Origin: an uncultured Candidatus Saccharibacteria bacterium
GTDB lineage: Bacteria > Patescibacteriota > CALEFQ01
DNA: 64,000 nt
Reading direction: 5' to 3'
Assembly: GCA_965230955.1 (NCBI GenBank)
Contig: OZ246404.1
Location: forward strand, 685,426 to 749,425
Below the pieces are notes generated by a model that saw nothing but the letters and a program-made list of their open reading frames with translations, did no database searches and was not told the DNA's origin. The position numbers and the translations under genes are program-made. This document shows, in pieces, positions 254 through 52,042 of the stretch (its first letter is position 1; the number at the start of each line of letters is the position of its first letter).

Positions 254-329
254 AATTTAACAAATTCAGCCAAAAACCACGTGGTCAAAAGTTACGTGGA
301 TTTAATTTGGCTCAATCAAAATATCTAAA

Positions 330-760: not shown

Positions 761-834
761 TACCTAAAATAGAGGGCGAAGTCAAGAAAAACCCCGCTAA
801 TGCAGATGCACTAGCGGGGAACAATCAATGGCGT

Positions 835-1509
835 TTATTGGGGCGGAAGCTTGATCTTCGAGCCGAAGAAAAGCTTCAGCTCTTCGGCGGGAGTACGCCC
901 TGTTTGAAGCGGTCCCCCGCACGGCTCGTAAAGAAGCTGTGCTAATTCCTCTTCCGCACCGGCTTTCTTTTGAACGATTTTCCAATCGTTCATTGCCCTT
1001 TCTGTCGCTACCTTTTTACAAGGAGGCTGCATAAGGGCAATTTGCTCCAGATTGGAATAAACGAATTCGCACTCGTAACAATCCAATCCCAGGAAGAGCA
1101 TAGTCGATTTCCGCACTAAATCGACAAAAATTTCCTGATCTGCTGGCAACGAAGATCTGCCAAGGAAAAAAATGGCATCGGTCAGCACCGAACTCCAATG
1201 GTTGTTGTCGGGATGGTCACCCGCGTACCTCGGATCCACTGGAATATTGTGCTCCAAACTTTCTTCGACGAGATAGCGAATTCCCCGGAAATCATCCGAT
1301 GTCTCCACCATTTTTTTCGCGGCCTCCAAAGCCATGATTGGCTTGGTTTGACCGACCAAATTCTGAACATTTTCGAACATCGGATCGGTTTCTTCAAGCA
1401 TCTCCTGCTCAGACTCCGGAGAGTCCGGCATGACGGAGAGCCGATCTTCGGCAGACGCAAAACCCACAAAACAAGCACTCATCAAAATGACCCAAATATA
1501 GAACCGCAT
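835..1509 (-). CDS. Hypothetical secreted protein. The signal peptide is MRFYIWVILMSACFVGFASA.
   Basis: Long ORF. I placed the start at the internal Met, which gives a signal peptide. A sigma70-like promoter lies just upstream. Confidence 0.6.
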   Translation of the reverse strand: MRFYIWVILMSACFVGFASAEDRLSVMPDSPESEQEMLEETDPMFENVQNLVGQTKPIMALEAAKKMVETSDDFRGIRYLVEESLEHNIPVDPRYAGDHPDNNHWSSVLTDAIFFLGRSSLPADQEIFVDLVRKSTMLFLGLDCYECEFVYSNLEQIALMQPPCKKVATERAMNDWKIVQKKAGAEEELAQLLYEPCGGPLQTGRTPAEELKLFFGSKIKLPPQ

Positions 1510-1565
1510 ATAGATCCTCCTTCTTTTTTGATCGCGGTTATTGGATACGCCAATTGAATAAAAAC

Positions 1566-1594
1566 AGTCTACCATATATGCATAATTTTGTCAA
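1566..1594 (-). promoter_or_regulatory. Sigma70-like promoter (TTGACA, 17 nt, TAGACT) for the 835..1509 gene
   Basis: The minus strand reads TTGACAaaattatgcatatatggTAGACT. Confidence 0.5.
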
Positions 1595-1595
1595 T

Positions 1596-1626
1596 AGAAA
1601 AAGGCCCCTAAAATAAGGCCTTTAAA
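1596..1626 (-). terminator. Intrinsic terminator after rnhA/recJ
   Basis: The minus strand reads aaaggccttattttaggggccttttt. A short 4-5-bp stem is followed by a T-run. Confidence 0.5.
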
Positions 1627-1720
1627 CATGGGAAAATCGCTTTGTCCGTCACATCGGGCGTCTGTACTTGTTGTGTTTTAGAGTGGTTTTAAACCGCATA
1701 TTCCTGTTCGCCATTCCGGT

Positions 1721-2134
1721 TTAATTTTTACCTGTTGCCTGATCGATCGCTTCATTCACCAACTTATCCGCTTCTTTGTTTTTTTCGCGAGGAATATGAT
1801 GAAAAGCTATTGAATTGAATTTATTGGTCAGGGCCAACGATTTCGCGAACAAAGGCTTGAGATCCGCATTTTTCACCCGGTACTCTCCCCGCATTTGCTT
1901 CACGATCAATTCACTGTCCATAAAGACCTTCAAATCTTCAACTTGTTCCGTTCTTGCCAGTTCCAATCCAGCAATCAATGCCTGATATTCCGCCTGATTA
2001 TTCGTCGCGGTCCCAATAGTTTTTTTGACTTTTGACTTTTGACCTTTGACTTTCAAAACAACCCCGATCCCCGCCGGTCCGGGATTGCCCCGGGCTCCTC
2101 CATCGGTATATAGTTCCGCATTATTCTTTAACAT
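1721..2134 (-). CDS. rnhA: Ribonuclease HI
   Basis: YTDGGARGNPGPAGIGVV and the catalytic core are conserved. The protein carries an in-frame KVKGQKSKVKK insert encoded by a GTCAAAR heptad array. Confidence 0.85.
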   Translation of the reverse strand: MLKNNAELYTDGGARGNPGPAGIGVVLKVKGQKSKVKKTIGTATNNQAEYQALIAGLELARTEQVEDLKVFMDSELIVKQMRGEYRVKNADLKPLFAKSLALTNKFNSIAFHHIPREKNKEADKLVNEAIDQATGKN

Positions 2135-3842
2135 TGGTGCGTATATCTAAAATATTTAATTGAAGCTCTCTATTCCCATTCCATTCGTTGGCCTCAAGCT
2201 CGTAGGCCACATCGACAGTGTCCTGGAAATTGATCCGATTCACCATTTCCCCGAAACCGAAAGCAATGGCCGGAATAACATTGGCCGGAGCTTCCGCCGA
2301 GCGCAAATCAAGTTTGAGATGTTTTCCCTGCTTACCCACCGCTCTCACGCCGGCCACCAATAATTGCTTGGTGGCAAAACGAGGCTTTTCATTGGCGAAA
2401 CCATGCGGCTCAAAAACCTTCAAGGCATCGTGCAATTCCCAATTAATCTGATCCGGCCGCAAAACGGAATCGATCGCCAGCTCACTGCGCAAATCATCGG
2501 GGGCTAATTTTTTCTTGGCCACCGCCTTGAGCCGGCGGGCGAAACTATCAAGATTCTTGTTCGGTACCGTACAACCGGCGGCCTGAGAATGGCCGCCATG
2601 TTTTTCCAGCAAATCATCACACATTCGTATCGCTTCGATAATATTAAATTTGGCGGTACTGCGCGCCGAGCCGACACTGAAAGTCGCCTTTTTTTCCAAA
2701 ATTAACACCGGCCGGGCGTGGCGTTCGCACAGCTTGCCGGCAACCAAACCAACCACACCGGAAGGCCAGTTTTCGCTATAAGCCACCAGGAGGGATTTCT
2801 CATCGGTCACATCCCCGATCTGCGTTTCCGCCTCTTTCATGAATTTATCGGTAATCACTTGGCGCTGGCGATTGATCAAATCCAATTCCTGGGCCAAGGC
2901 CAAAGCTTTTTCCCCGGAATCGGCCATCAGCAAATCAAAAGCTATTTGGGAATGCTTGAGACGGCCGGCGGCATTCAGCCGCGGACCGATACGAAAACCG
3001 ATATCATAAGTGTCCAAATCCTGAAGATCAACTTGCGATTTTTCCATGAGCGAACGTAACCCGGTCCGTTTGGTTCGCGCCAGCACTTGCAAACCGTATT
3101 TCACCAAGGTGCGGTTTTCCCCGATAATCGGCGCGCAATCGGCCACGGTGCCCACCGCCACCAAATCAAGATACCATTTTTCCGACTGGGCTAATTTTTG
3201 TCCGGCCGGCAATTTGGTCTTGAGCGCTTGAATCATTTTAAAAGCCACACCGACACCGGCTAATTGTTTGAAAGGATATTTGTCGTCTTGGCGCGAAGGA
3301 TTGATGACCGCATCCGCCGCGGGAATTTTATCCGGCACGGTATGATGATCGGTGATTACCACGTCCATTCCCAGTTTTTTGGCCAGGGCCACCTCGGTAA
3401 TATTGGTAATTCCGCAATCCACGCTGACGATCAAATTAACGCCATCCGCCTTAAACTTTTTGATAGCTTCTTGATTGATACCGTAGCCCCCTTCTTGCCG
3501 GGACGGAAGAAACACACCTACATCCGCTTTGAGTCCTTTGAGGACATCAAACAAAAGAACGGCGCCACTGACGCCATCGGCATCATAATCGCCGTGGATT
3601 AATATTTTTTCCTTTTTGGCCAGTGCTTTTAAAATTCGCGCCACTCCCCGATCCATATCTTTCATCAGAAAAGGGTCGTGCAAATCCTGTTCGTAATCCG
3701 GATTGACAAATTCATCCACCAGGGCCTGCGTTTTGATTCCACGATTAAAAAGCAACTGCGCCACAATTGAAGAATACTCTGGAAATTTCTTCAGAAATTC
3801 CCGCGGGACAGCCGGAGCGATTTTCCAATCTTGATTTAACAT
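2121..3842 (-). CDS. recJ: Single-stranded-DNA-specific exonuclease RecJ
   Basis: DHH motif HGDYDADGVSG and a DHHA1 domain, about 570 aa. Confidence 0.85.
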   Translation of the reverse strand: MLNQDWKIAPAVPREFLKKFPEYSSIVAQLLFNRGIKTQALVDEFVNPDYEQDLHDPFLMKDMDRGVARILKALAKKEKILIHGDYDADGVSGAVLLFDVLKGLKADVGVFLPSRQEGGYGINQEAIKKFKADGVNLIVSVDCGITNITEVALAKKLGMDVVITDHHTVPDKIPAADAVINPSRQDDKYPFKQLAGVGVAFKMIQALKTKLPAGQKLAQSEKWYLDLVAVGTVADCAPIIGENRTLVKYGLQVLARTKRTGLRSLMEKSQVDLQDLDTYDIGFRIGPRLNAAGRLKHSQIAFDLLMADSGEKALALAQELDLINRQRQVITDKFMKEAETQIGDVTDEKSLLVAYSENWPSGVVGLVAGKLCERHARPVLILEKKATFSVGSARSTAKFNIIEAIRMCDDLLEKHGGHSQAAGCTVPNKNLDSFARRLKAVAKKKLAPDDLRSELAIDSVLRPDQINWELHDALKVFEPHGFANEKPRFATKQLLVAGVRAVGKQGKHLKLDLRSAEAPANVIPAIAFGFGEMVNRINFQDTVDVAYELEANEWNGNRELQLNILDIRTNVKE

Positions 3843-3982
3843 AAAAATCCCTAGACGGGGGTTTGTGGATTAGCTTCTAACATTGTAACGCAAAAATCCC
3901 AATAAAACAAGGCTATACTCCTCGCCAACAAAGCACTCTGAAAACAAAAAGACAACCTCAATCATGGTGTCTTTTTGATTGA

Positions 3983-4052
3983 AATTCAAAATGCATAATT
4001 CATAATGCAAAACTACTAATCCAGATTATGCATTTTGAATTTTGAATTATCA
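3983..4052. repeat. Inverted repeat ttcaaaatgcataat / attatgcattttgaa (family E, TGCATTTTGAATT)
   Basis: Perfect 15-bp arms with a 26-nt spacer. A related motif occurs at 22017-22050. Confidence 0.6.
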
Positions 4053-4053
4053 A

Positions 4054-4851
4054 TTATTTCGGCACTTCTATGTCCGGCACGTATTTTTTGTATATCCTTT
4101 GCAAAGTACCGTCGTGCTTTATTTCATCAAAAGCATCTTGCCAATCAGCCGCTATTTTTGGGTCAGTCCCTTTTGATACAGCAATGTAAAACTCGGTTTC
4201 CAATATTTGATACAGAGACTTGATCTCGTCCGGTGAATAGCCGGCATCTTGGACTAAATTACTCACGGTCATGTCGGTAAAAACCGATAAATCTGCTTTC
4301 CTGTCGATTAATTGACGCACATCTTCCTGGGGATCGGTGAAACTTTGTAAATTAGTAAAACCCTGATCTCTGAGATATTGCTCGGTAAACCAAGAAGAAC
4401 AAGTCGCGATCTTGGGCACTTTTTTGGCCTGCGCCAAATCACCGATTTTTAGATCCGAATCGCGGTGAACGTAAAAATATGTTCGATTACGGCCCAGTGG
4501 GCCGACCCAATTAAACAAAGTCTCGCGCTCAGCCGTCCGCTCCGTGCTGAAAAGAATCGTATTGGGATTTGTTTTCGCTTGCGCGTAGGCCTCATCCCAG
4601 GGCAAAAGCGCCAGATCGTAATTACGCACCTCGAGTCGCTTCATGATCTCGGTCACTATCTCCGTCGCCAGGCCGGAAATCCGACCATCTTTTTCGCGAT
4701 AAGTGATCGGGGGATACTCTTCGGTCAGCAGTGTCAATTTAACTTCGCTCACGGGCCGTGTTTTTACGGCAGCAAAATATATCCCCAAGCAACCGGCGAC
4801 GATCACCATCAGCACCATGGCGATAATAAATTTCTTCATTTTGGTTAGCAT
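4054..4851 (-). CDS. Family-3 solute-binding protein (amino-acid ABC transporter or sensor type) with an N-terminal TM/signal segment
   Basis: N-terminal hydrophobic segment. The architecture is that of a periplasmic binding protein (SBP_bac_3-like). Confidence 0.6.
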   Translation of the reverse strand: MLTKMKKFIIAMVLMVIVAGCLGIYFAAVKTRPVSEVKLTLLTEEYPPITYREKDGRISGLATEIVTEIMKRLEVRNYDLALLPWDEAYAQAKTNPNTILFSTERTAERETLFNWVGPLGRNRTYFYVHRDSDLKIGDLAQAKKVPKIATCSSWFTEQYLRDQGFTNLQSFTDPQEDVRQLIDRKADLSVFTDMTVSNLVQDAGYSPDEIKSLYQILETEFYIAVSKGTDPKIAADWQDAFDEIKHDGTLQRIYKKYVPDIEVPK

Positions 4852-4902
4852 TTCCTCCGATTAATAACAAGCGGGGCGGCAAAACTTACACCCCGACAAA
4901 AA

Positions 4903-5799
4903 TTATAATTTTTGCAAACTCTCCAATCTCAACCACTGCTCACCAATCTCTCGCTTCAACCGCTCCATCCCCTCTTTATCTTTAAATAACTTTGCGAAAC
5001 GCTTTTGCGGCTTCATAAATTCTTCCAGCTCTTTCGGCTTTTCTACCGGCACCGTAATTTTATAACGCCCATTTTCAACTTCGTACATCGGCCAGTAGCG
5101 AGATTCGACTGCCAACTTAGATAACTCAATCGCCATATCCGTCTCGATTTTCCAGCCAGGAATACACGGAGAAAAAACATTCAAAAACTTCGGTCCGGGA
5201 ATGGAAAAAGCCTTGTGCGCTTTTTGGTATAAATCATTCCACGGCCACAAGGCCGTCTGGGCCGCGTAGGGCAAATCATGCGCGGCGATAATTCTGGTCA
5301 GATCTTTTCTTTTTCCCGACTGTCCCGCCGGAGTTGTCGTCGTTGAAGCGCCGAACGGAGTCGCGCCGGACTTCTGGGCGCCGGTATTCATATAGGCCTG
5401 ATTATCGTAGCAAACATAGAGAAAATCATGGCCGCGCTCAATGGCGGCCGAAAGAAACTGCAAACCGGCGTCATAAGTCGCTCCGTCGCCGGCAAAAACC
5501 ACAAATTTGATCGGCCGATCAATTCGTCCGCGTTTTCTCATGACTTTATAAGCCGCCTCTATTCCGCTGATCGTAGCCGCGGGATTTTCCAAAAGCGAAT
5601 GAACAAAAGGCACCCGCCAAGAAGTCTGCGGGAAAACAGAGGTGGTCACTTCCAAGCACCCGGTTGCCACCGCCACCACGACCGGATCGTCGGTCGCCCG
5701 TAAAACATGCCGAACGATCGTCGTGATCGGACAGCCGGCGCAGGTGCGATAGCCGGGCGCAAGAGTAGGGCGTTTAGTTGTGAGTGAAGCGAGGCGCAT
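4903..5799 (-). CDS. porB: Pyruvate:ferredoxin oxidoreductase beta subunit (TPP-binding)
   Basis: GDGATYDAG TPP motif, and its position in a porGDAB gene order. Confidence 0.85.
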   Translation of the reverse strand: MRLASLTTKRPTLAPGYRTCAGCPITTIVRHVLRATDDPVVVAVATGCLEVTTSVFPQTSWRVPFVHSLLENPAATISGIEAAYKVMRKRGRIDRPIKFVVFAGDGATYDAGLQFLSAAIERGHDFLYVCYDNQAYMNTGAQKSGATPFGASTTTTPAGQSGKRKDLTRIIAAHDLPYAAQTALWPWNDLYQKAHKAFSIPGPKFLNVFSPCIPGWKIETDMAIELSKLAVESRYWPMYEVENGRYKITVPVEKPKELEEFMKPQKRFAKLFKDKEGMERLKREIGEQWLRLESLQKL

Positions 5800-5920
5800 G
5801 AGACGAAATTTAAAGCTAAAAATTTAAAAGAAATTTAAAGATTAAAAACGAAAACCGCGATTTTAATTTTCGGCTTTAAATTTATTTCAAACTTTGATTT
5901 TTTAATTTTAAATCTTGATA
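5800..5920. repeat. AT-rich tandem approx. 12-mer repeats (aaatttaaag-type) in the porA-porB spacer
   Basis: Sequence aaatttaaagctaaaaatttaaaagaaatttaaagattaaaaacg. Confidence 0.5.
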
Positions 5921-7054
5921 TCATATCGATTTAACAATCTCTTCAACGGTAACATCCTTTCCCCCCAATCCATATATCCGACTGATCACTTCCGGCGCCG
6001 GTTCCAGCCCATAGAGCGCGTTCCGGATTTCACCGACCAGCGGAGCTTGCGCGCCGTAAGACATCGAGCGGTCATAAACAATCACGCGGCGCACTCCCGC
6101 CAGAGCGCGGCGGATTTCATTATAAGGAAAAGGACGAAAAAGTATCGGCTTCAGCAAACCGACTTTCCGCCCGTCGCGGCGCAAGACCTCAACCGCTTCT
6201 TTGGCCGTACCGGCGGTGGAATTAAGAAAAACCAAAGCCGTGTCAGTATCACCGAATTCTTCGACCGCCTCGTCCTCATACAACTCAAACAGCGGATAAG
6301 CTCGCCCGGTCAGAGATGAAAGCTGTTCGCCCAACTCAATATATTTTGCCTTGACGCTTTCCAAAGTCTCGTGCTGATTTATCCGAAAATCCATGTACTG
6401 CTCCGGCAGAACCAGCGGCCCCCAGGTGGAAGGATGATCGACATCCAAAGCGCTTTTCTCGATGGAACGCCCGCCGACAAATTCCGCCGCCGATTGATCA
6501 TTCAGAATCTCCAGGTTTTCCAGAGAATGAGTCGTGACAAAGCCATCCAACAGGACCATCGCCGGCAACTGGATATCTTTGTCCTCGGCAATCTTCGTCG
6601 CCAACAACATGTGTTCATAAACCTCCTGAACATTTTCACAAGCGATTTGTATCCAGCCCAGATCGCGAGTGCCCATGCTATCCGAATGGTCGCAGTGAAT
6701 ATTAAGCGGGCTGGAAATCGCCCGGTTGCCGACAGCCATCACAATCGGCAAACGTAAACCGGCGGCGACACCCAAAACTTCCCACATCAGCGCGATCCCT
6801 TGCGAGGCCGAAGCCGTGATCACGCGAGCGCCGGCGATCGAAGCCCCGACGGCGATACTCATAACCGCATGTTCCGATTCGGCCCGGACCACTTCTCCGT
6901 CGAGCCGACCTTGCGCCGCCATGTCAGCGACCGTTTCAATGATTTGAGTTTGCGGAGTAATCGGATATACCGGAATCACGTCAACTTGCAATTGGCGTAT
7001 CGCTTCGGCCACCGCTTGCGAGCCGGTTAATAATGTTTTATTTACTGTCTTCAT
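5921..7054 (-). CDS. porA: Pyruvate:ferredoxin oxidoreductase alpha subunit
   Basis: Conserved POR/KOR alpha N-terminal domain with the transketolase-like fold. Confidence 0.85.
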   Translation of the reverse strand: MKTVNKTLLTGSQAVAEAIRQLQVDVIPVYPITPQTQIIETVADMAAQGRLDGEVVRAESEHAVMSIAVGASIAGARVITASASQGIALMWEVLGVAAGLRLPIVMAVGNRAISSPLNIHCDHSDSMGTRDLGWIQIACENVQEVYEHMLLATKIAEDKDIQLPAMVLLDGFVTTHSLENLEILNDQSAAEFVGGRSIEKSALDVDHPSTWGPLVLPEQYMDFRINQHETLESVKAKYIELGEQLSSLTGRAYPLFELYEDEAVEEFGDTDTALVFLNSTAGTAKEAVEVLRRDGRKVGLLKPILFRPFPYNEIRRALAGVRRVIVYDRSMSYGAQAPLVGEIRNALYGLEPAPEVISRIYGLGGKDVTVEEIVKSI

Positions 7055-7304
7055 CGATCATTTCTATGGCTTTGCGCGGCGCCGGACAAACTTGGGCGCA
7101 AACTCCGCAGCCTTTACAATAAGTTAAATCCAAGCCGGAAATTTTACCGTCTTCGGCTTGCCAGCACTGATCCGGACAAAAGTTAACACAAGACAAACAA
7201 TTGATGCAATTTTGCTTCAAATGTTCGGGTTTTTTACCCGTCCGCCAAGAACCGGTTTGGTAATTGATAGACGAGCCGGGTTGGTCGATACGCGAAGAGG
7301 ACAT
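7038..7304 (-). CDS. porD: Pyruvate:ferredoxin oxidoreductase delta subunit (2x[4Fe-4S] ferredoxin)
   Basis: CINCLSCVNFCP and CKGCGVCAQVCP motifs. Confidence 0.85.
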   Translation of the reverse strand: MSSSRIDQPGSSINYQTGSWRTGKKPEHLKQNCINCLSCVNFCPDQCWQAEDGKISGLDLTYCKGCGVCAQVCPAPRKAIEMIDEDSK

Positions 7305-7307
7305 AAA

Positions 7308-7388
7308 TCAGGTAACAAGTATCAAGTAATAGGTAACAAAAAGGAAATTATTCCAATTTGATACTTGTCACCTGTTACTTGTTAATTT
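7308..7388. repeat. Palindromic heptad-repeat element, family C (GGTAACA/TGTTACT)
   Basis: Sequence ggtaacaagtatcaagtaataggtaacaaaaaggaaattattccaatttgatacttgtcacctgttacttgtt. It is near-identical to the copy at 43741-43832. Confidence 0.7.
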
Positions 7389-7963
7389 TAATATTTTATC
7401 TGCTCGACAGCTTTCTCCATTAACTTCACATTCAGCTGGCCCATTTCCGCATTATATTTCTTGGTGAAAAAATCGCCGACCACTTTTTTCAGCACCGTGG
7501 CATCAATAAAATTAATGGCTCGAACGGCGGCGGCCAAGACCGCCATATTGGGCAAATTTTTTCCCAAAGCGGCTCGGGCGATGGGCGAAGCGTCGATAGT
7601 CGCCGCTCGGCCTCGGAATCCCAATAAAGTTTTTATTTCACCGGCCGAACGATTATCATTCACCACCAACCAGCCGTTATCATTTAAACCGGCGACCACG
7701 TTTTCGGATTTGAGCAGCGAAGCATCGATGACCATTACCGTCTGCGGACGATAAACCAGACTGTGAATTTTGATGGGCGCCGATGAAATTCGCACAAAGG
7801 TTTGCATCGGGGCACCGGTCCGCTCCGGACCATAGGAAGGAAAAGCCTGGACAAACCGGCCACACCTAAATGCCGTCTCAGCGATCATCTGAGCGGTAGT
7901 TTCCGCGCCTTGTCCGGCGCGCGCGTGGATTCTAAGTTCGTATAGAAATGCCATCTGGGTCAA
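7388..7963 (-). CDS. porG: Pyruvate:ferredoxin oxidoreductase gamma subunit
   Basis: POR gamma (CoA-binding) domain, first gene of the por cluster. Confidence 0.8.
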   Translation of the reverse strand: MTQMAFLYELRIHARAGQGAETTAQMIAETAFRCGRFVQAFPSYGPERTGAPMQTFVRISSAPIKIHSLVYRPQTVMVIDASLLKSENVVAGLNDNGWLVVNDNRSAGEIKTLLGFRGRAATIDASPIARAALGKNLPNMAVLAAAVRAINFIDATVLKKVVGDFFTKKYNAEMGQLNVKLMEKAVEQIKY

Positions 7964-8022
7964 AAGTCAAAGGTCAAAAGTAAAAAGTTAATGATTGTAC
8001 TTTTGATTTTTGACTTTTTACC
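7957..8022. repeat. Palindromic heptad-repeat element, family A (GTCAAAR)
   Basis: Sequence gtcaaaagtcaaaggtcaaaagtaaaaagt ... actttttgatttttgactttttac. Confidence 0.7.
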
Positions 8023-8326
8023 TGGCTAAAGGGTCATGCCCTGTTTCAACTTCCTGCTGATCGGAATAACCATCGCTATCGGTATCGACCAAAAAGAGAT
8101 CGGTACCGAGCTCGACTTCCCGGCTATCCGGCAAACCGTCACGATCGGAATCAATCTCGGCCACTTCAGTCGAAGTCGGAACGGGTGTCGTTTCCGAAAC
8201 CGGTTGGCTAATCGCCGTCCCACTGTCGGTATTAGTCACATCTCCGCAGGAAAAACCCAAACCGGCAAAGCCCAAAATACAAACGCTCAGAGCCAAAGGA
8301 ATAAAAATTTTTGTAAAAACATTCAT
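8018..8326 (-). CDS. Small secreted or lipoprotein-like protein with two DxDxDG calcium-binding (thrombospondin type-3-like) repeats
   Basis: Signal peptide with an LGFSC lipobox-like motif. Repeats DSDRDGLPDSRE and DTDSDGYSDQQE. Confidence 0.55.
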   Translation of the reverse strand: MNVFTKIFIPLALSVCILGFAGLGFSCGDVTNTDSGTAISQPVSETTPVPTSTEVAEIDSDRDGLPDSREVELGTDLFLVDTDSDGYSDQQEVETGHDPLAR

Positions 8327-9379
8327 CTATCTTTCCGCCAGTTTAAGAGTCTCGCGCGCGATCAAAACCTCTTCTTTTGGAGCAAAATGCAGAACTTTTA
8401 TTCCTCGCGCCAGCGCCAGATCTTTCAGTACCAGCTGGCGAATATATTCGCTTCCCTCCCCGATCGCGCCGGTAAAAACCAAGGCATCAACTCGATTGAG
8501 CACTGCGAAATAAGCTCCCAAATATTTTTTCAGGCGGTAGGCGTAAAAATCCAGCGCCGCCAATGCTTTTGCCTCGCCCGACTTCGCCGCTTCCTCTATT
8601 TTCAGCATGCCGTCCTTGATTCCTGATAGCGCCGTCATGCCCGATTCTCGATTGAGCAACTGATAAACTTGTTCGGCGCTCATCTTCGCCTGTTTCTGCA
8701 AATAGAGAGGAATTGCCGGATCGATGTCGCCACACCTAGTCATCATGACCAATCCCTCCATGGGTGTGAATCCCATGCTGGTATCAATCGGCTGACCGGC
8801 CTTGATCGCCGCGACGGAGGCTCCGCCGCCGAGGTGAATCGTAATCAAATTAAGTTTATTCAGGTCTTGCTCCAATTCTTGGGCGGCTTGCTGCGCCACC
8901 GATTGGTGAGAAATCCCGTGAAAACCGAAACGGCGCAGGTGATATTTTTCTTCCAAATCAGCCGGCAAGGCATAATGCCGAGCCACGGCGGGCAAATTCG
9001 CGAACCAGCCTGTATCAAAGACGGCAACATTGGGAATATTTTGGCCCAAATTTTTCAAACTCGCCCGGAGACAAGCCAGGCCGGGAGGATTATGCAACGG
9101 CGCCAAATCATTATAGCGCTCCAGACGCCGGATGATAATCTCATTGGCGATCAGCGGGTCGAAAAATTCCTCACCGCCATGAACAATCCGGTGCCCGATC
9201 GCCATCAAATCAGCCTCGCCGTTTAAATCATCCAACATCATTTGGAACGCCATGTCATGATTTTTCACCAAGGTACCAATTTCTCGGATAGTACCGGCGC
9301 TTTTTTGATTCAACTCTCTATCAAATAAAATATACTTCAGCGAAGTTGATCCGGCATTGATGACTAAGATATTGTTCAT
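8327..9379 (-). CDS. ackA: Acetate/propionate-family kinase (acetate kinase-like)
   Basis: N-terminus MNNILVINAGSTSLKY. It is shorter than the usual 400 aa, so it could also be a butyrate-kinase type. Confidence 0.75.
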   Translation of the reverse strand: MNNILVINAGSTSLKYILFDRELNQKSAGTIREIGTLVKNHDMAFQMMLDDLNGEADLMAIGHRIVHGGEEFFDPLIANEIIIRRLERYNDLAPLHNPPGLACLRASLKNLGQNIPNVAVFDTGWFANLPAVARHYALPADLEEKYHLRRFGFHGISHQSVAQQAAQELEQDLNKLNLITIHLGGGASVAAIKAGQPIDTSMGFTPMEGLVMMTRCGDIDPAIPLYLQKQAKMSAEQVYQLLNRESGMTALSGIKDGMLKIEEAAKSGEAKALAALDFYAYRLKKYLGAYFAVLNRVDALVFTGAIGEGSEYIRQLVLKDLALARGIKVLHFAPKEEVLIARETLKLAER

Positions 9380-9948
9380 AAGATTATTATTTTTCCACTC
9401 GATCGCCCGGTCAGACCCAGAGCGTTTCCTTCGTCAGTATCCAAATGAAAAGACATCTGAAAACCCGGCTTAATTCTGACCACGCATTGATCCAACCGTC
9501 CTCCCCGCTCTCCCGCCACTTCCAGCGCTACTAGCTGGTCATTGTTCAAATCAAATTTGGCCGCATCCTCGGGGCCGATATGCAAATGACGCTTGGCGAT
9601 AATCATACCTTCCGACAGATCAACCGTACCGTTCGTGCCGATCAACTTGACCGGCGCCGAACCTTTCACGTTTCCCGATAAACGCAGAGGGACTCGGGCT
9701 TTTAGCGTGCGTGCATCGGTCAGGGAGATTTCAATCTGATCATGTTCGCGACTAGGCCCCAGCACTCGAACCTTTTCTATTTTCCGATCACCCGATTGAA
9801 TGGTCAAAGTAAAATCCGAAGCAAACTCATCCGCCTGGCTCAGCTTCTTATGCGACTGCATTTTCGCCGCCTGACCAAACAGTTTAACCAAAGTCGCTTC
9901 GGTCAAATGCGCGTGACGGGCGGAGATTTCTATGGGAATGGTGACCAT
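9376..9948 (-). CDS. pduL: PduL-type phosphate acyltransferase (phosphotransacetylase function)
   Basis: Duplicated PduL motif IEISARHAHL, about 190 aa, adjacent to the acetate kinase. Confidence 0.75.
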   Translation of the reverse strand: MVTIPIEISARHAHLTEATLVKLFGQAAKMQSHKKLSQADEFASDFTLTIQSGDRKIEKVRVLGPSREHDQIEISLTDARTLKARVPLRLSGNVKGSAPVKLIGTNGTVDLSEGMIIAKRHLHIGPEDAAKFDLNNDQLVALEVAGERGGRLDQCVVRIKPGFQMSFHLDTDEGNALGLTGRSSGKIIIL

Positions 9949-9978
9949 ATTTGGATAAAAATTTATAATATTTGGATT

Positions 9979-10377
9979 TTAGCGATCCCACGGCTTGGCC
10001 TCCGGCTGAAAATCAACTTGGTATGCCGGAATTCCCAAAGAAATTCCGTATTTTTTAGCCTGATCGTATTGCTCCGAGCTGGTTCGATCTATCTTGAAAA
10101 CACGTCCACGAAAAACTATATAGTGCCATTGATCATTCTTGAAATCGGCGTACCAATTGTGCCTGGAATCCAATGACCGACTGACGGCTTGCGCTATTGA
10201 CGCGGCTTTTTCTGCCGGGACTTCCACCGTATGCATGGTCCATTGCTTGATCCAAGGAGTTTGGTGTTCCGCGGCCACCTTTTCAACTTCTGTCTTGATT
10301 ATTTTTATGCTGCCCAAGATATCCTTTTTTTCCAAGCTTTCTTCGATGATCACTCCGCGAAAAAAATCATTCAACAT
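9979..10377 (-). CDS. Hypothetical protein
   Basis: ORF in an operon context with no recognisable motif. Confidence 0.45.
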   Translation of the reverse strand: MLNDFFRGVIIEESLEKKDILGSIKIIKTEVEKVAAEHQTPWIKQWTMHTVEVPAEKAASIAQAVSRSLDSRHNWYADFKNDQWHYIVFRGRVFKIDRTSSEQYDQAKKYGISLGIPAYQVDFQPEAKPWDR

Positions 10378-10379
10378 AA

Positions 10380-11366
10380 TTATAATTCCGTTACCATGAT
10401 CTTGTCCAAATGATTCTCGATTTCCTCCAGTTTCATGGCCCCGTCATGAGCGCCCCAGCGGCGCGTGACCGCGCCGGCATTGATCGCCCCCATTTTCAAA
10501 GAGGTGGTAATGTCCTTCCGCATCATCAACCCGCCGACAAAAGTAGCGCCGAAAGTATCACCGGCCCCCGTCGCGTCCACCGACTCAAAGCGGTAGAGCG
10601 GAACCTGATACCAGCGGCGTCCGTCGTAAAGCGAAGTTCCCTCTTTGCCCTGCGTCAGCAAGATATACCGCGGTCCCAGATCGGATAACTTTTTTAGGAT
10701 GGTGCGTAAATCGTTCATTTCTTCTTTATCAGTGATGCGCAACAAACGAACCGCTTCATGATGATTCAGAATCAGCACCTCCACTCTTTTAAGCAAAACC
10801 GCCAGCGCTTCCGGCTCGTTCAGCTGGACCAGTCCCGGATTCCAAGCCAGAGCGACTGTTTTCGGCAACCGGGCTAAATAGTCGATGTCTTCCTGCCAAG
10901 TTGCGCCGGACAAGGCCGAGAGATAAATCCATTCGGACGGGGGTAATCCCCGCTCGGCCAGCCCCAAACTGTCGCTGGCCCCTTTGTAATTAAACGACAA
11001 ATGTTCTTGGCTCATGACATCATGAATCAGAAAAGACAATCCGGTTTGTTGGCCGGAAGCCACTTTTACCAAGGAAGTATCAAGACGGGAATTTACCAGA
11101 TAGCGCACGAGATTTTTACCGCTACTGTCATTTCCCACCTGAACCAGCGGGACGGCGGAACAGCCCAGTTGGGCCAAAACCATCGCCGTATTCACACCGG
11201 CGCCGCCGAATCTGACGCGTAAATTTTCCATCGGGATTTTGTCATCCAGTCCGAAACCCAAAAGCGCCGGAACGCTAACCACCCCCGGCTGTTTAACCAC
11301 TTGCCCGCCGGCAATTTCCCCGAAAAAATCCTGCAAGGCGCTGCCGATTGTAATGATGTCGAACAT
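10380..11366 (-). CDS. PfkB-family carbohydrate kinase. It may be a phosphofructokinase or ribokinase-like enzyme heading the glycolytic cluster.
   Basis: DATGAGDTFGATFV motif and N-terminal GG motifs. Confidence 0.75.
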   Translation of the reverse strand: MFDIITIGSALQDFFGEIAGGQVVKQPGVVSVPALLGFGLDDKIPMENLRVRFGGAGVNTAMVLAQLGCSAVPLVQVGNDSSGKNLVRYLVNSRLDTSLVKVASGQQTGLSFLIHDVMSQEHLSFNYKGASDSLGLAERGLPPSEWIYLSALSGATWQEDIDYLARLPKTVALAWNPGLVQLNEPEALAVLLKRVEVLILNHHEAVRLLRITDKEEMNDLRTILKKLSDLGPRYILLTQGKEGTSLYDGRRWYQVPLYRFESVDATGAGDTFGATFVGGLMMRKDITTSLKMGAINAGAVTRRWGAHDGAMKLEEIENHLDKIMVTEL

Positions 11367-11369
11367 ATA

Positions 11370-11446
11370 TGGTCTTTAGTCGTTAGTCTTTGGTCTTTAG
11401 ATTAATCGAGAAAAGCTAAAGACTAAAGACGAAAGACTAAAAGATC
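11370..11446. repeat. Palindromic heptad-repeat element, family B (TCTTTRG)
   Basis: Sequence tggtctttagtcgttagtctttggtctttag ... ctaaagactaaagacgaaagactaaaag. The right arm overlaps the gpmI stop codon. Confidence 0.7.
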
Positions 11447-13038
11447 AAACTCCGCCCGGTCATGTAGGACGGGCGCTCAATGCCCATCAGCTCTAAAATC
11501 GTCGGCGCGATATCAGTCAGCACGCCTGAAGGCGTCTCGGGTTTGAAGCCGAAATTGACTCCGGGAGGCGAATACTGCCGGCGCTCAAAACCATCGGCCA
11601 CAATGGCAAACGGAATCGGATTGGAGGAATGTTCTTTTTCGATCTCGCCGGTCGCCGGATCGCGCAACTGTTCGGCATTACCGTGATCGGCCGTCACGAT
11701 GACCGCACCGCCGAGAGGCAAAATCGTATCCAGTAAGCGCCCCAAGCAAGCATCGACCGTATTGATCGCCACTTTGGTTGCTTCAATGTTTCCCGTATGG
11801 GCCACCATATCCGGATTGGCGAAATTGACCAAAATAAAATCGTATTGATTTGAGGAAATTTTTTCAATCAGCTGATCCGTCAGGGTGGCCGCACTCATCT
11901 CCGGCGCCTGATCATAAGTATTAACATCGCGCCGCGAATGCACCAGTAAAAATTCTTCCCTGGGGAAAGGCTTATTGCTGCCGCCGTCAAAAAACGACGT
12001 AACATGGGCGAATTTCTCCGTCTCGGCGCCATGAATTTGCTTCAGGCCGTGCTCGCTGATAATTCGCGCGATGGGATACTCTATTTTTTGGGGATGGAAA
12101 GCAATATGTAGCGGCAAATCGACGCCGTAATCATTCATGGCCGCAAAATAAATATTTTTCAACCGCGGCTCATTTTCACCGGTCGAGGAAAATTTATTGA
12201 AGCCGGGCAAAAGAAAAGCTTTGCACATTTCGCGCGCCCGATCGGGGCGATAATTGAAGAAAATTATCGCGTCATTATCTTTGATCGGCTGATAAGGATG
12301 TTCGGGTGAATCAAGAATCACCGGCACGAAATTCTCATCAAAGACATTACGCTGGTAGGAATCGGTAATCGCCGCGGCCGCCGAAGGATATTTCGGTCCA
12401 TGTCCTTTGACCATGGCGTCATAAGCAAATTTTACGCGATCCCAGTGCTCATCGCGATCCATCGCATAAAAACGACCGCTGAGCGAATCAATTTGCCCGA
12501 TTTTCGCCGCTTGCAGTTTATTTTCCAGCTCGGTGATAAATTCCAAGCCGCTTTTCTCCGGAGTATCACGACCGTCCAGCCAGGCGTGGATATAAAGCTG
12601 GCTGACTTCTTTGTCCTTGGCAAAATCGATTAAGGAAAAAAGATGTTCGTTGTATGAGTGAACCTTGCCCGAGCTGACCAATCCCATGATATGCAAGGCG
12701 GAATTGTTTTTTCGGACGTGCTCCACTGCCTGGCGAAACGATTCGTTGCGGAAGAAAGAGCCGTCGCGGATAGCGCTGTTGATTTTGCTCACCTCCTGAT
12801 AGACGGTAAAACCCGCCCCCATATTCATATGGCCGACTTCGGAATTGCCCATCTCGCCCCACTCCAAACCGACAATCTCACCCGAGGCCTGTAAAGTCGT
12901 CGCGTAGTACTCTTTTTCAATCCTGTCCATTATCGGCTTATCCGCCAAAGTAATGCCGTTATAAGATGAAGCCGGAGCGATTCCCCAACCATCTAAAATA
13001 ATCAGCGCGACCGGACGATATTTTTTGTTTAAAGACAT
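11437..13038 (-). CDS. gpmI: 2,3-bisphosphoglycerate-independent phosphoglycerate mutase
   Basis: N-terminus RPVALIILDGWG, about 530 aa. Confidence 0.9.
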   Translation of the reverse strand: MSLNKKYRPVALIILDGWGIAPASSYNGITLADKPIMDRIEKEYYATTLQASGEIVGLEWGEMGNSEVGHMNMGAGFTVYQEVSKINSAIRDGSFFRNESFRQAVEHVRKNNSALHIMGLVSSGKVHSYNEHLFSLIDFAKDKEVSQLYIHAWLDGRDTPEKSGLEFITELENKLQAAKIGQIDSLSGRFYAMDRDEHWDRVKFAYDAMVKGHGPKYPSAAAAITDSYQRNVFDENFVPVILDSPEHPYQPIKDNDAIIFFNYRPDRAREMCKAFLLPGFNKFSSTGENEPRLKNIYFAAMNDYGVDLPLHIAFHPQKIEYPIARIISEHGLKQIHGAETEKFAHVTSFFDGGSNKPFPREEFLLVHSRRDVNTYDQAPEMSAATLTDQLIEKISSNQYDFILVNFANPDMVAHTGNIEATKVAINTVDACLGRLLDTILPLGGAVIVTADHGNAEQLRDPATGEIEKEHSSNPIPFAIVADGFERRQYSPPGVNFGFKPETPSGVLTDIAPTILELMGIERPSYMTGRSLIF

Positions 13039-13046
13039 AGGATGTA

Positions 13047-13105
13047 GAGTCTTTGGTCTTTAGTCTTTGGCTAACGACCAAAGAATAAAAACCGCTGACC
13101 AAAAA
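13047..13105. repeat. Heptad-repeat element, family B
   Basis: Sequence agagtctttggtctttagtctttggctaacgaccaaagaataaaaacc. Confidence 0.6.
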
Positions 13106-13122
13106 ACAAAATCAAAATACTT

Positions 13123-14439
13123 TTACAATCCGCTATATTTCCCCATGCCATCGGCTCGCAATTCATCTTCAATTTCCATCAAACGATTGTATTTGGCGAC
13201 CCGTTCCCCGCGCGAGGGCGCGCCGCTTTTGATCCGGGTGGCATTGACCGCCACCGCCAAATCGGCGATGAAAGTATCGGTGGTCTCGCCGGAACGATGG
13301 GAAACGAAAGCCCGCATTTTGTTTTGGTACGCGAGAGCGATAGTTTCAAAAGTTTCCGAAAGGCTGCCGATCTGATTGACTTTAATCAACACCGTATTGC
13401 AAGCTTTGTTGTCGATCGCCATCTGCACCCGCACCTTATTGGTCACCAAAAAATCATCGCCGACAATCTGGATCTTCGATCCGCAGAGTTCGTTCAGTTT
13501 CTTCCAGCCATTTAAATCATCTTCCGCCAGGCCGTCTTCAACCAAGATCAATTGGTAAGCCTCGATCCATTGTTTCACAAAATCAACCATCTGCTCGGTC
13601 GTCAGAGACTGGTCTTTTTCCTTAAAAGCCATATGATACTGGCCCGACTTGAAAAATTCCGAAGCCGCCATGTCCGCTCCGACACCGACCTGAGAACCAT
13701 ATTTATAGCCCGCGTCGACGATCGCCTTTTTCAAAAGAACCAGCACTTGTTCATCCGGATCCCGGTTCGGCGCACTTTTGGCCTCGAGCGACGGAGCAAA
13801 ACCGCCCTCATTGCCGACATTGGTCGAAGCTTTCAGTTCTTTCAAAATTTTCTCCAAGTGATGGAAAACTTCCGAGCCCATCCGCACCGCCTCCCGAAAA
13901 CTCTCCGCCCCGACCGGGCCGATCATGAATTCCTGGCAGTCAAGATTATTATCGGCGTGCGCCCCGCCATTGATCACGTTGAACATCGGCACCGGCAACA
14001 AATAACCTTCCAGATCGTAATAGTTATCAAATAATTCACGCAGATAGACATAGAGCGGCATTTTGCGTGACTGCGCCGCCGCTTTGGCGCAGGCGAGCGA
14101 GACGGATAAAATCGCGTTGGCACCGAGATTTTTTTTCTGGGGATCGCCGTCCAGCTTGATCATTTCGTGATCCAGCATTTTTTGGTCGAAAACATCGCGT
14201 CCCTGCAAATGATTGGCAATCTTGACATTGACGTTTTCACACGCTTTCAAAACCCCTTTGCCCAAAAATCTTTTTTTATCGCCGTCGCGCAATTCCCAGG
14301 CTTCATGCACGCCGGTTGAGGCGCCCGATGGCACGCCAAATTCACCGCGTGAACCATCTTCGAGCGTCACGACCGTGTTAATCGTCGGTTCGCCGCGAGA
14401 ATCCAAAATCTCTCGCGCTTGGATTGATTTGATATTCAT
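13123..14439 (-). CDS. eno: Enolase
   Basis: N-terminus MNIKSIQAREILDSRGEPT and the enolase signature. Confidence 0.92.
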   Translation of the reverse strand: MNIKSIQAREILDSRGEPTINTVVTLEDGSRGEFGVPSGASTGVHEAWELRDGDKKRFLGKGVLKACENVNVKIANHLQGRDVFDQKMLDHEMIKLDGDPQKKNLGANAILSVSLACAKAAAQSRKMPLYVYLRELFDNYYDLEGYLLPVPMFNVINGGAHADNNLDCQEFMIGPVGAESFREAVRMGSEVFHHLEKILKELKASTNVGNEGGFAPSLEAKSAPNRDPDEQVLVLLKKAIVDAGYKYGSQVGVGADMAASEFFKSGQYHMAFKEKDQSLTTEQMVDFVKQWIEAYQLILVEDGLAEDDLNGWKKLNELCGSKIQIVGDDFLVTNKVRVQMAIDNKACNTVLIKVNQIGSLSETFETIALAYQNKMRAFVSHRSGETTDTFIADLAVAVNATRIKSGAPSRGERVAKYNRLMEIEDELRADGMGKYSGL

Positions 14440-14444
14440 GAAAG

Positions 14445-14506
14445 TTGTCTTTAGTCGTTAGTCTTTAGTCTTGGGCTAACGACCAAAGACTAAAGACCAA
14501 AGACTT
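14445..14506. repeat. Palindromic heptad-repeat element, family B
   Basis: Sequence gtctttagtcgttagtctttagtcttgggctaacgaccaaagactaaagaccaaagac. Confidence 0.7.
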
Positions 14507-14509
14507 TAA

Positions 14510-15697: not shown

Positions 15698-15698
15698 T

Positions 15699-15732
15699 AT
15701 TGTTACTTGTTCCGTGTTACTTGTTACTTATC
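15699..15732. repeat. Heptad tandem array, family C (TGTTACT). It is a half-element that overlaps the gap 3' end.
   Basis: Sequence tgttacttgttccgtgttacttgttactta. It encodes the C-terminal ...ISNK of GAPDH. Confidence 0.55.
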
Positions 15733-16751
15733 TTTTCCGCCATCTCCACCAATCGGACCGAATAAGCCCATTCGTTATCATACCAGGCCACGACTTTAGC
15801 CAGATTTCCGCCAACCACTTTGGTAAAAGGCAGGTCGACGATTGACGATTCGGTCGATCCGATGATATCGGAAGAAACAATATCATCATCCGAAACGGCG
15901 AGGATGCCTTTCATTTTTCCCTGAGACGCCGCCGTCAGCTTGGCGTTAATTTCCTCTACGGTCGTATCTTTTTTCAGAACCATGGTGATGTCGGCAATCG
16001 AACCGCAGATGACCGGAACACGAATCGCCGTCCCGTCAAAAATTCCTTTCAATTCCGGAATCGCTTTCGTCGTCGCAATCGCCGCGCCGGTACTCGAAGG
16101 AGCGCTATTGGCCGCGCCGGCCCGTCCCCGACGATGGTCTTTTTTGTCCGGCCCATCAACCAATAATTGAGTCGCCGTGTAAGCGTGGGTCGTCACCATC
16201 ATTGATTTGGCCACGCCGAATTCATCGCACATAACCTTCATGACCGGAGCAATGCAGTTCGTCGTACACGAAGCGTTGTCGATGATTTTTTCGCCCCGGT
16301 ACTCTTCGTCATTTACTCCTCGGATATAAGTCGGCACCGGGTCTTTTTCATTGGAAGGCGCGGACAACAAAACTTTTTTAGCTCCGGCTTTTAGATGCAA
16401 ATCCATGTCGGCCGCTTTGGTAAAAACACCGGTGCATTCCAGAACCACATCAACCCCGAGTCTACCCCAAGGCAGTAGAGCGGGATCTTTTTCGCGGAGC
16501 ACTTTAATTTTTTTGCCGTCGATGACCAGATTATCCCCGTCCACTTTGACCGACTTGTCATATCGGCCATAAACCGTGTCGAAACGCATCAGATAAGCCA
16601 GGGCCTCTATATCCCCCAGATCATTAATAGCCACAATCTCCAGATTTTTTTTGGCGAAAATTATTTTGCAGGCGGCCCGGCCGATCCGGCCGAAGCCATT
16701 GATCGCGATCTTTAGCATAAAATTACAATTAAGCGATAAGTCAAAAGTCAA
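15717..16751 (-). CDS. gap: Glyceraldehyde-3-phosphate dehydrogenase
   Basis: N-terminus INGFGRIGR and catalytic SCTTNC. Confidence 0.92.
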   Translation of the reverse strand: MTFDLSLNCNFMLKIAINGFGRIGRAACKIIFAKKNLEIVAINDLGDIEALAYLMRFDTVYGRYDKSVKVDGDNLVIDGKKIKVLREKDPALLPWGRLGVDVVLECTGVFTKAADMDLHLKAGAKKVLLSAPSNEKDPVPTYIRGVNDEEYRGEKIIDNASCTTNCIAPVMKVMCDEFGVAKSMMVTTHAYTATQLLVDGPDKKDHRRGRAGAANSAPSSTGAAIATTKAIPELKGIFDGTAIRVPVICGSIADITMVLKKDTTVEEINAKLTAASQGKMKGILAVSDDDIVSSDIIGSTESSIVDLPFTKVVGGNLAKVVAWYDNEWAYSVRLVEMAEKISNK

Positions 16752-16800
16752 AGGTCAAAAGTAAAAAGTGCCAGACTTTTGACTTTTGATTTTTGACCTG
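16738..16800. repeat. Palindromic heptad-repeat element, family A
   Basis: Sequence agtcaaaagtcaaaggtcaaaagtaaaaagtgccagacttttgacttttgatttttgacc. It is followed by the GC palindrome cctgcctgccggcaggcagg (16797-16816). Confidence 0.7.
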
Positions 16801-16817
16801 CCTGCCGGCAGGCAGGC

Positions 16818-17687: not shown

Positions 17688-17692
17688 AGAAT

Positions 17693-17725
17693 TAAGTCAA
17701 AAGTCAAAAATAAAAAGTCAAAATT
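17693..17725. repeat. Heptad tandem array, family A (one arm only)
   Basis: Sequence aagtcaaaagtcaaaaataaaaagtcaaaa. Confidence 0.5.
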
Positions 17726-17728
17726 GCA

Positions 17729-18719: not shown

Positions 18720-18723
18720 AAAA

Positions 18724-40497: not shown

Positions 40498-40502
40498 AAT
40501 AA

Positions 40503-40590
40503 TTTAAGATGTAAGATATAAGAATTAAGAACAGAAGACGTTTTATCTTACATTTTATTTCTTAAATCTTATATCTTAGAATATCAAACT
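40503..40590. repeat. Palindromic heptad-repeat element, family D
   Basis: Sequence taagatgtaagatataagaattaaga ... tcttaaatcttatatcttagaat. Confidence 0.7.
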
Positions 40591-41444: not shown

Positions 41445-41630
41445 ATGTCTCGCGTTTGCTCTATCTGCGGCAAAGGCTCAAAAGTCGTCACTAAGACCGT
41501 ATTTTTGCGTTCGCATACCAATCCCACCGGCAAGAGACGCCAATACCCCAACCTGCAAAAAACGACTTATCAGGGCAAAAAGGTTCGAGCCTGCGTTAGC
41601 TGTATCAAAAAACAGAACAAGACTAAGTAA
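41445..41630 (+). CDS. rpmB: 50S ribosomal protein L28
   Basis: MSRVCSICGKG...RSHTNPTGKRR. Confidence 0.88.
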   Translation: MSRVCSICGKGSKVVTKTVFLRSHTNPTGKRRQYPNLQKTTYQGKKVRACVSCIKKQNKTK

Positions 41631-41682
41631 AAAGTCAAAAGTAGAATTACAAAATTTTTTACTTTTGACCTTCGACTTTTAA
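41629..41682. repeat. Palindromic heptad-repeat element, family A
   Basis: Sequence aaaagtcaaaagtagaattacaaaattttttacttttgaccttcgactttt. Confidence 0.65.
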
Positions 41683-41862
<180 letters not shown>

Positions 41863-43740: not shown

Positions 43741-43832
43741 GACAAATAACAGGTAAAAAGTAACAGGTAACAAAAGGGATTAATCATTCCAATTTGTGAC
43801 CTGTTACTTGTGACTTGTTACCTGATTCTAAC
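43741..43832. repeat. Palindromic heptad-repeat element, family C
   Basis: Sequence aacaggtaaaaagtaacaggtaacaaaagggattaatcattccaatttgtgacctgttacttgtgacttgttacc. Confidence 0.7.
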
Positions 43833-51871: not shown

Positions 51872-51941
51872 AAAATTACATCTTTATGGTGTAACTTTTC
51901 TCACACCAGCTCGAGAAAAAGTTCACTCATTTATTAATTAA

Positions 51942-51992
51942 GTTAAAAGTCAAAGGTCAAAAGTCGAAACTTTTTACTTTTGACTTTTTACT
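51942..51992. repeat. Palindromic heptad-repeat element, family A. It is followed by the GC hairpin gccccgaggtgtctcggggc.
   Basis: Sequence aagtcaaaggtcaaaagtcgaaactttttacttttgacttttt. Confidence 0.7.
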
Positions 51993-52042
51993 TAGTAATA
52001 AAAATGCCCCGAGGTGTCTCGGGGCGCAACTATTATAGTTGT

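Follow-up and report, generated by a model that had tools for sequence, protein, structure and literature searches.

Among the longer simple repeats of bacteria, heptanucleotide repeats are the class most strongly over-represented, and we know of no established function for them. STRR (short tandemly repeated repetitive) sequences in the strict sense, those of Mazel et al. in 1990, are said to come from heterocyst-forming cyanobacteria. Palindromes that are scattered through intergenic DNA, transcribed, and flanked by co-directional or convergent genes are familiar from proteobacteria as repetitive extragenic palindromic (REP) sequences, bacterial interspersed mosaic elements (BIME) and hairpin-forming REP doublets (REPIN), which stabilise mRNA and of which one genome may hold several families; a REP is an imperfect palindrome, G+C-rich and ~20-40 nt long, that carries a conserved 5' GTAG, lacks an internal 7-nt periodicity and is linked to REP-associated tyrosine transposase (RAYT) genes. 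Here we describe arrays of the heptamer GTCAAAR, termed family A, in a 64,000-nt stretch of contig OZ246404.1 (the window, to which all coordinates refer unless a relative is named). They belong to an STRR-like heptamer system which, on a reading to which we give slightly better than even chances, has grown by slippage and copying and is used, or at least put up with, as a hairpin in the RNA between cistrons; the host is not a heterocyst-forming cyanobacterium, and the arrays are therefore filed only as "STRR-like".

In cyanobacteria, the gap between hupS and hupL holds STRR hairpins built of 7-bp repeats, for which a role in stabilising the transcript or coupling translation has been suggested and is unproven (PMC2670836), and an STRR has intruded into cyanobacterial RNase P RNA (Vioque 1997, as cited in PMC7593598). 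The GGGAATC heptamers of Xanthomonas (Rehm et al. 2015) are intergenic, with 70-75 arrays per genome in inverted pairs; their position and type (single or inverted) are mostly kept between species, while length and sequence vary (PMC4692102). TAACTGA repeats (MacGregor 2015) occur in marine Beggiatoaceae, some cyanobacteria and Bacteroidetes, a patchy phyletic distribution, as 169 direct sets and one inverted set; their arrays lie a few nt upstream of start codons in spacers without a canonical ribosome-binding site, also in ribosomal-protein operons, and a post-transcriptional regulator of the S1, Csp or CsrA type has been proposed for them (PMC4679880). For the general heptamer excess, slippage was proposed by Mrazek et al., as cited in PMC4679880 and PMC4692102.

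Repeat counts for this genome refer to the window, which together with a further 7.9 kb makes up the DNA of this genome that was covered. The initial annotation had described six palindromes of family A, separating genes. Tandem GTCAAAR-type heptamers are present at all six loci (Tandem Repeats Finder (TRF) period 7, 2.7-4.6 copies per arm), and they exceed chance by a wide margin: the two-unit pattern GTCAAARGTCAAAR, searched with at most two mismatches, gave 29 matches, compared with 2.27 +/- 1.59 (maximum 6) in 100 shuffles. Four of the loci are palindromes between genes, and their flanking genes were correctly named, as judged by Pfam: the POR gamma-subunit gene porG next to a small gene with TSP3 repeats, gap next to fba, rpmB next to a gene for a 2x[4Fe-4S] ferredoxin, and ftsA next to ftsZ. 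The description does not hold for the other two, one of which is a one-armed array and the other a direct array inside the RNase H gene. The six loci are as follows.

7957..8022: palindrome A1, with 5' arm 7959-7988, a loop of ~10 nt and 3' arm 7999-8021
16738..16800: palindrome A2, with arms 16740-16769 and 16774-16797
41625..41685: palindrome A3, with unequal arms 41627-41643 (three units) and 41656-41685 (four units)
51940..51993: palindrome A4, with arms 51942-51969 and 51969-51993
17694..17723, minus strand: one-armed array, read in mRNA as UUUUGAC, UUUUUAU, UUUUGAC, UUUUGAC
2023..2053, minus strand: direct array, (GTCAAAR)x4, within the coding sequence of RNase H (rnhA, 1721..2134, minus strand)

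A1 occupies the whole 63-nt spacer between the TSP3-repeat gene (stop 8018) and porG (start 7954), both on the minus strand. Its 5' arm is made of the units GTCAAAA, GTCAAAG, GTCAAAA and GTAAAAA followed by GT, and is identical over 30 nt to the 5' arm of A2, with the unit variants in the same order; A2 sits in the 99-nt fba-gap spacer beside a GC hairpin (16798-16818). A3 takes up the entire 61-nt spacer between rpmB and the ferredoxin gene (both on the plus strand), and its first unit contains the rpmB stop codon. A4 lies within the 171-nt ftsA-ftsZ spacer, after a canonical terminator (52006-52025; GCCCCGAGACACCTCGGGGC plus T5) and before a conserved ftsZ leader hairpin. The one-armed array fills the 41-nt DUF1653-fba spacer, ends 5-6 nt from the fba start codon and is predicted to be unstructured (dG 0). 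The rnhA array (28 nt, four units) is in frame, encodes KVKGQKSKVKK and follows the first strand of the RNase H fold, and Pfam RNase_H matches residues 5-130 of the gene that carries it. Three relatives (L173, L174 and L175) hold four perfect GTCAAAA units at the same rnhA codons, the array and the protein (137 aa) being equally long.

An autocorrelation scan agrees with TRF on the tandem 7-nt units, and a period-7 scan gave 40 arrays in the window. They fall into at least five families: A (GTCAAAA), B (GTCTTTA), C (ATCTTAT), D (ATTTTGA/TGCATAA) and E (GTAACAR), all with the architecture that the initial annotation had ascribed to A and B in common. The arrays cover 1.9% of the window, and within its non-coding DNA their share is 16%; 36 of the 40 lie in the 11.9% that is non-coding, and 13 sites are palindromic when all families are counted. 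Their placement is restricted: among spacers measuring 40 bp or more, arrays were found in 21 of the 36 co-directional and in none of the eight divergent or convergent ones (Fisher p = 0.004). A heptamer arm lies within 25 nt of the start codon in 16 genes of the window, in which Shine-Dalgarno sites are scarce (GGAG, GAGG or AGGA at -21 to -3 in just 9 of 78 genes).

The four family A hairpins are predicted to form 22-27 A/U-rich bp with a short loop. With flanks, on the transcribed strand, they fold at -16.5 to -42 kcal/mol (neighbouring hairpins being counted for A2 and A4), with z scores of -4 to -9 against shuffles: -26 kcal/mol for 81 nt around A1 (7950-8030; z -6.7; -32 on the plus strand), -37.5 for A2 including its GC hairpin (z -6.0) and -16.5 for A3 (z -4.0). 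In three loci the hairpin begins 0-18 nt past the upstream stop codon and ends 8-22 nt ahead of the next start codon, the corresponding distances in the ftsA-ftsZ spacer being 41 and 59 nt; over all families, most palindromes have 0-15 nt between the upstream stop codon and their own beginning, and 4-22 nt between their end and the downstream start codon. With the hairpin folded, the stretch left single-stranded from stop to start is about as long as in relatives without the array. In six of seven cases a one-armed array has its end 2-8 nt ahead of a start codon. The arms of family A have a fixed polarity, A-rich 5' and U-rich 3' in all four palindromes of the window; family B has the opposite A/T order, and both families carry GTC in the 5' arm and GAC in the 3' arm. 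Both strands fold for all 13 palindromes, and a strand preference based on G.U versus A.C mismatches was rejected: the plus strand folds better for A1, A2 and A4, and A3 and families B-E have no consistent direction.

The ftsA-ftsZ slot could be followed across relatives, defined as contigs encoding an FtsZ or RecJ of the same 90%-identity protein clusters as those of the window; the ftsZ genes of the fetched relatives are 78-85% identical to that of the window in nucleotides. A heptamer palindrome occupies the slot in all six species-level lineages (ftsZ 78-91% nucleotide identity), always between the conserved terminator and the conserved leader, and the family that fills it differs.

Window, ftsA-ftsZ slot: family A
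L128, L178 and L180, ftsA-ftsZ slot: a variant of A, with units GGCAAAA and GTGAAAG
L181, ftsA-ftsZ slot: A' (GTAAAAA)
L176, L182 and L183, ftsA-ftsZ slot: family E

The closest pair, L181 and L182 (77% identical at ftsZ four-fold sites), hold different families in this slot. L176 and L182 are just 54% identical at these sites, yet their E palindromes differ by one substitution in 76 nt and by no indel. Within a family, palindrome identity reaches 96% against 54% at ftsZ four-fold sites, and otherwise stands at 70-80% against 43-53% (for example, 80 against 53 and 71 against 45); the baseline between families is 54-64%. The arrays of L128, L178 and L180, contigs from different samples with near-identical ftsZ (99.8% for one clean pair), are identical. 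The initial annotation had suggested that arm copy number varying between strains would point to slippage, and this signature failed to appear either among these three contigs or between the two species with E palindromes, which show no 7-nt indel. Its broader proposal of a common generating or selecting process is supported by the comparisons, namely by the restriction to co-directional spacers and by one slot that holds a palindrome in six lineages.

Two further features of the ftsZ region were recorded. The leader hairpin upstream of ftsZ (GTGAACTTTTTCTC...GAGAAAAGTTACAC; 51876-51935, minus strand) is 76-93% identical among L128, L176, L182 and L183, compared with only 38-54% for their ftsZ four-fold sites; it is without an Rfam match and may be a cis-regulatory RNA for ftsZ. 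From nrdR to ftsZ the window has a gene-free stretch of 539 bp (50133-50671), and L176 and L181 carry two or three small hypothetical genes at the matching place, and strong ribosome-binding sites (GGAGG) precede some of them, in contrast to the rest of these genomes.

Other orthologous spacers show stages that range from one seed unit through a one-armed array to the full palindrome. Between the TSP3-repeat gene and porG, L173 has a spacer of 17 nt (GTATACTTTTGCTTACT, one seed unit) as against 63 nt in the window, and the gpmI-pfkB spacer measures 39 nt in L173 and 70 nt in the window, with a central ATTAAT common to both. Between eno and gpmI, the window has a hairpin and L173 a one-armed B array. 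The fba-gap and DUF1653-fba loci were compared with no relative nearer than L129, the nearest fba relative in metagenomes (75% identical), in which the fba-gap spacer is ~40 nt with a single TTTTGACTT and no array is present at tpi-fba. In the lacB-MGDG spacer, an E palindrome is present in the window and in L176 and absent from L128; its loop is inverted between the two copies, which is the expected product of recombination between the two arms. The rpmB-ferredoxin region, with a single hairpin in the window, has in L128 two family A palindromes, one beside each gene, around an extra ~270 bp; no Rfam family was matched and no gene was called in this insert (11460-11760). Public contigs L123 and L124 end at window position 16741, inside A2, and L176 and L177 start within arrays; short-read contigs ending in this way indicate that the repeats break de Bruijn assemblies.

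The unit itself is widespread. Exact (GTCAAAR)x3 arrays form at least 120 stretches in GTDB representative genomes, the hosts among the matches listed being mostly Nostocales and Oscillatoriales, along with Bacteroidota, Acidobacteriota, Chloroflexota and several groups of the candidate phyla radiation (CPR). Of 132 arrays examined among the matches listed, 14 have an inverted partner, all of them with the A-rich arm 5' and none with the opposite polarity (binomial p ~1e-4). Further Microgenomates contigs hold many heptamer arrays of varied units, and the motif is rare among viruses, with 41 stretches in 2.9 million viral contigs, so that an association with phages was rejected. Our literature search found no paper on such heptamer repeats in CPR genomes.

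We reasoned that the arrays lengthen where they stand, through replication slippage with a 7-nt register, starting from seed units, as the graded stages at orthologous sites suggest; the second arm would be created, and kept complementary, through intrastrand template switching. Whole arms or elements would now and then be copied between loci, or take each other's place, a step suggested by the identical 30-nt arm of A1 and A2, by the family E loop at unrelated loci and by the family switch between closest relatives; the route may be either gene conversion or an enzyme. The arrays are probably transcribed within operon mRNAs, where a folded palindrome would loop itself out and leave the stop and start codons ~10-40 nt apart and single-stranded; because looping-out would keep this distance, an insertion could be tolerated. 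The hairpin could stabilise the mRNA or mark it for processing, and could preserve translational coupling, and one-armed arrays would leave an unstructured U- or A-rich leader right before the start codon. A role, or tolerance, at the level of RNA is favoured by the restriction to co-directional spacers, by the stop-hairpin-start geometry and by the lasting occupancy of a slot with strong conservation within families.

Several points weigh against this explanation. The arrays are dispensable at several sites, L173 and L129 having the same operons with spacers of 17-40 nt. The shared arm of A1 and A2, the non-repeat loop of family E and the L181/L182 switch resemble the copying of whole elements and not local growth. 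The close relatives that could be compared, at few sites and in few strains, showed no length polymorphism of 7 nt, which is a poor fit to frequent slippage. Initiation could be hindered and not helped by a stable hairpin whose end lies 4-8 nt ahead of a start codon, and every functional step proposed for the arrays is one that we infer from the analysis.

It is possible, if doubtful, that the arrays are neutral or selfish by-products, a slippage-prone filler surviving where it is harmless. Presence and absence vary among relatives, the essential glycolytic operons of L173 and L129 work without arrays, and arrays intrude into coding ends and into rnhA, all of which would suit such filler; yet the palindrome is conserved far beyond the ftsZ four-fold sites (54%), the ftsA-ftsZ slot is filled in six of six lineages, and arrays are excluded from all eight divergent or convergent spacers. 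Arrays also account for 16% of the non-coding DNA of the window, in a 1.1-Mb genome, a further point against filler. In favour of the neutral reading, heptamer repeats are over-represented in many unrelated bacteria (Mrazek 2007, as cited in PMC4679880 and PMC4692102). [quoted passage not shown] Such copying would account for the 30-nt arm identical in A1 and A2, for the non-repeat loop conserved in family E copies at three loci, for the abrupt switch from A' to E at one slot between closest relatives and for short-read contigs breaking at arrays as they would at dispersed repeats; set against this, a comparison of occupied with empty sites reveals graded growth from seed units and neither a clean insertion nor a target-site duplication, the arms consist of units of the slippage type in varying number, viral contigs seldom have the motif, and no transposase domain or nucleic-acid-binding candidate was found among the unannotated open reading frames of the window, nor any RAYT (Y1 transposase) gene within it.

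Two further accounts assign the arrays a direct role in expression. That they are repeated binding sites for a sequence-specific RNA- or DNA-binding protein, for example S1, Csp or CsrA, seems very unlikely to us: the ends of six of the seven one-armed arrays at 2-8 nt before a start codon, together with the scarcity of Shine-Dalgarno sites, repeat a pattern seen with TAACTGA (PMC4679880), but at least five units in one 1.1-Mb genome, exchanged at one slot between relatives, speak against a specific code, and in most copies the motif would be sequestered in a duplex. Least likely of the accounts weighed here are intrinsic, possibly bidirectional, terminators or attenuators, to which the polarity of family A lends some colour (all four palindromes of the window, and 14 against 0 elsewhere among the matches listed, follow the order A-tract, hairpin, U-tract). 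The stems have ~29% G+C, the full hairpin lacks a following U-tract, and the polarity is reversed in family B; the consensus scan for promoters and terminators, which covered positions 1-20000, flagged no array as a terminator; A4 directly follows a separate canonical GC-rich terminator with a T5 tail; and arrays lie inside the rpsL-rpsG-fusA cluster and inside strings of glycolytic genes. As for promoters, the same scan found promoter-like hexamers in a family D palindrome only, leaving the family A arrays unflagged, and a promoter role through the 3'-arm TTGAC as a -35 element was rejected by eye, as no consistent -10 lies at the correct spacing.

A stronger form of the RNA-level explanation, which we hold to be quite unlikely, is that the palindromes are a selected "punctuation" of polycistronic mRNAs, each intercistronic slot needing a long A/U-rich hairpin and any propagated family being able to serve; the hairpin would be an RNase III-type processing or stability site, or a device coupling stop and start. 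If true, this would explain both why the slot is kept while its family turns over and why the installed copy is nearly invariant.

Some described classes of element were rejected as names for the arrays. No target-site duplication flanks them, and "empty" orthologous sites already hold seed units or one arm, which excludes a MITE; arms of ~29% G+C built of 7-nt tandem units exclude REP and REPIN. A DNA-uptake sequence was considered, the window having ComEC, and set aside since five units coexist, are tandem and not single dispersed copies, and differ between close relatives; for CRISPR, unique spacers are absent. A search of the whole window against Rfam at the gathering score returned RNase P RNA only, no array matching a family, and relaxed E-values yielded merely sub-threshold matches to A/T-rich hairpins in the A4 region and the L128 insert. 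The RNase P RNA gene itself, of bacterial class A, lies at 331-747 on the minus strand (201 bits).

Further heptamer arrays with assigned families are listed here.

11368..11442: family B palindrome (GTCTTTA ... TAAAGAC), filling the gpmI-pfkB spacer
14445-14506, 38524-38609 and 39087-39158: further family B palindromes
13047-13071, 25085-25143, 46359-46394 and 55682-55709: one-armed family B arrays
43747..43828 and 7305-7389: family E palindromes (GTAACAR ... YTGTTAC) with a conserved loop
15700-15731: one-armed copy of family E
40499..40583: family C palindrome (TAAGATA ... TATCTTA)
61699-61783, 19751-19795 and 39692-39713: further family C arrays
3980-4060 and 22018-22051: family D arrays

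Family E copies at unrelated loci have a common non-repeat loop (CAAATTGGAAT..TCCTTTTTG), found in the window at 7305-7389 and 43747-43828, in L176 at 1-80 and 9734-9825, and in L182 at 2500-2590. Two family B arrays reach into genes: that at 25085-25143 enters the L15 gene (25100..25624, minus strand) at its 3' end and encodes the C-terminal tail EKPKTSDKRPKTKD and TAA stop, and that at 46359-46394 encodes the tail ...SKD and the stop codon of a PF1765-like protein. Arrays that extend into coding ends and start-codon regions can mislead gene callers.

The window contains genes for POR, acetate kinase, NrdD/NrdG, ComEC and LytR and the FtsA/FtsZ pair; almost all of its genes are on the minus strand, which is the G-rich one, and the named matches that come closest to it among the fetched contigs are Saccharibacteria and Roizmanbacteria. 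Its proteins are found on an NCBI contig of 1,136,458 bp. Contig size, gene content and these weak similarities suggest a host of the CPR/Patescibacteria type with a genome of ~1.1 Mb. What is new is the host lineage and the set of units, the kind of repeat being already known; the exchange of families within a persistently occupied slot, and the density of arrays in a 1.1-Mb genome, may also be new. With arrays at high density in a very small genome, a kind in which little DNA tends to be idle, and one slot that can be compared, the question of whether they are junk, mobile element or RNA device becomes testable.

Compared with the described systems, the arrays share with REP, BIME and REPIN sequences a dispersed, intergenic and palindromic nature and the presence of several families in one genome, whereas a G+C-rich stem, a 5' GTAG and a link to RAYT (sought within the window) were found for none of them. 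Like the GGGAATC repeats of Xanthomonas, they are intergenic heptamer arrays with inverted pairs whose type is kept between species; the Xanthomonas units, in contrast, are G-rich and form G-quadruplexes, while family A is A/T-rich without such potential, and the exchange of unit families at a slot, seen here, was not reported there. With the TAACTGA repeats they have in common start-proximal heptamer arrays in spacers poor in Shine-Dalgarno sites and a patchy distribution, although nearly all arrays there are direct and here most form inverted pairs. The resemblance to STRR sequences extends to a head-to-tail 7-nt unit (repeated at least about three times), a mainly intergenic location, several unit families per genome and some hairpins between co-transcribed genes; variation of 7-nt copy number between strains, another STRR trait, was absent from the few sites and few strains compared. 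The arrays differ from STRR sequences in their host, here with ~1.1 Mb and probably of CPR type as opposed to a large cyanobacterial genome, in their palindromic share (four of six for family A, as against ~11% of GTCAAAR arrays in the cross-genome sample of matches listed) and in filling whole intercistronic spacers. Both kinds intrude into functional genes, RNase P RNA in cyanobacteria and rnhA and the L15 tail here, and the very same unit, GTCAAAA, is arrayed in many Nostocales and Oscillatoriales among the matches listed.

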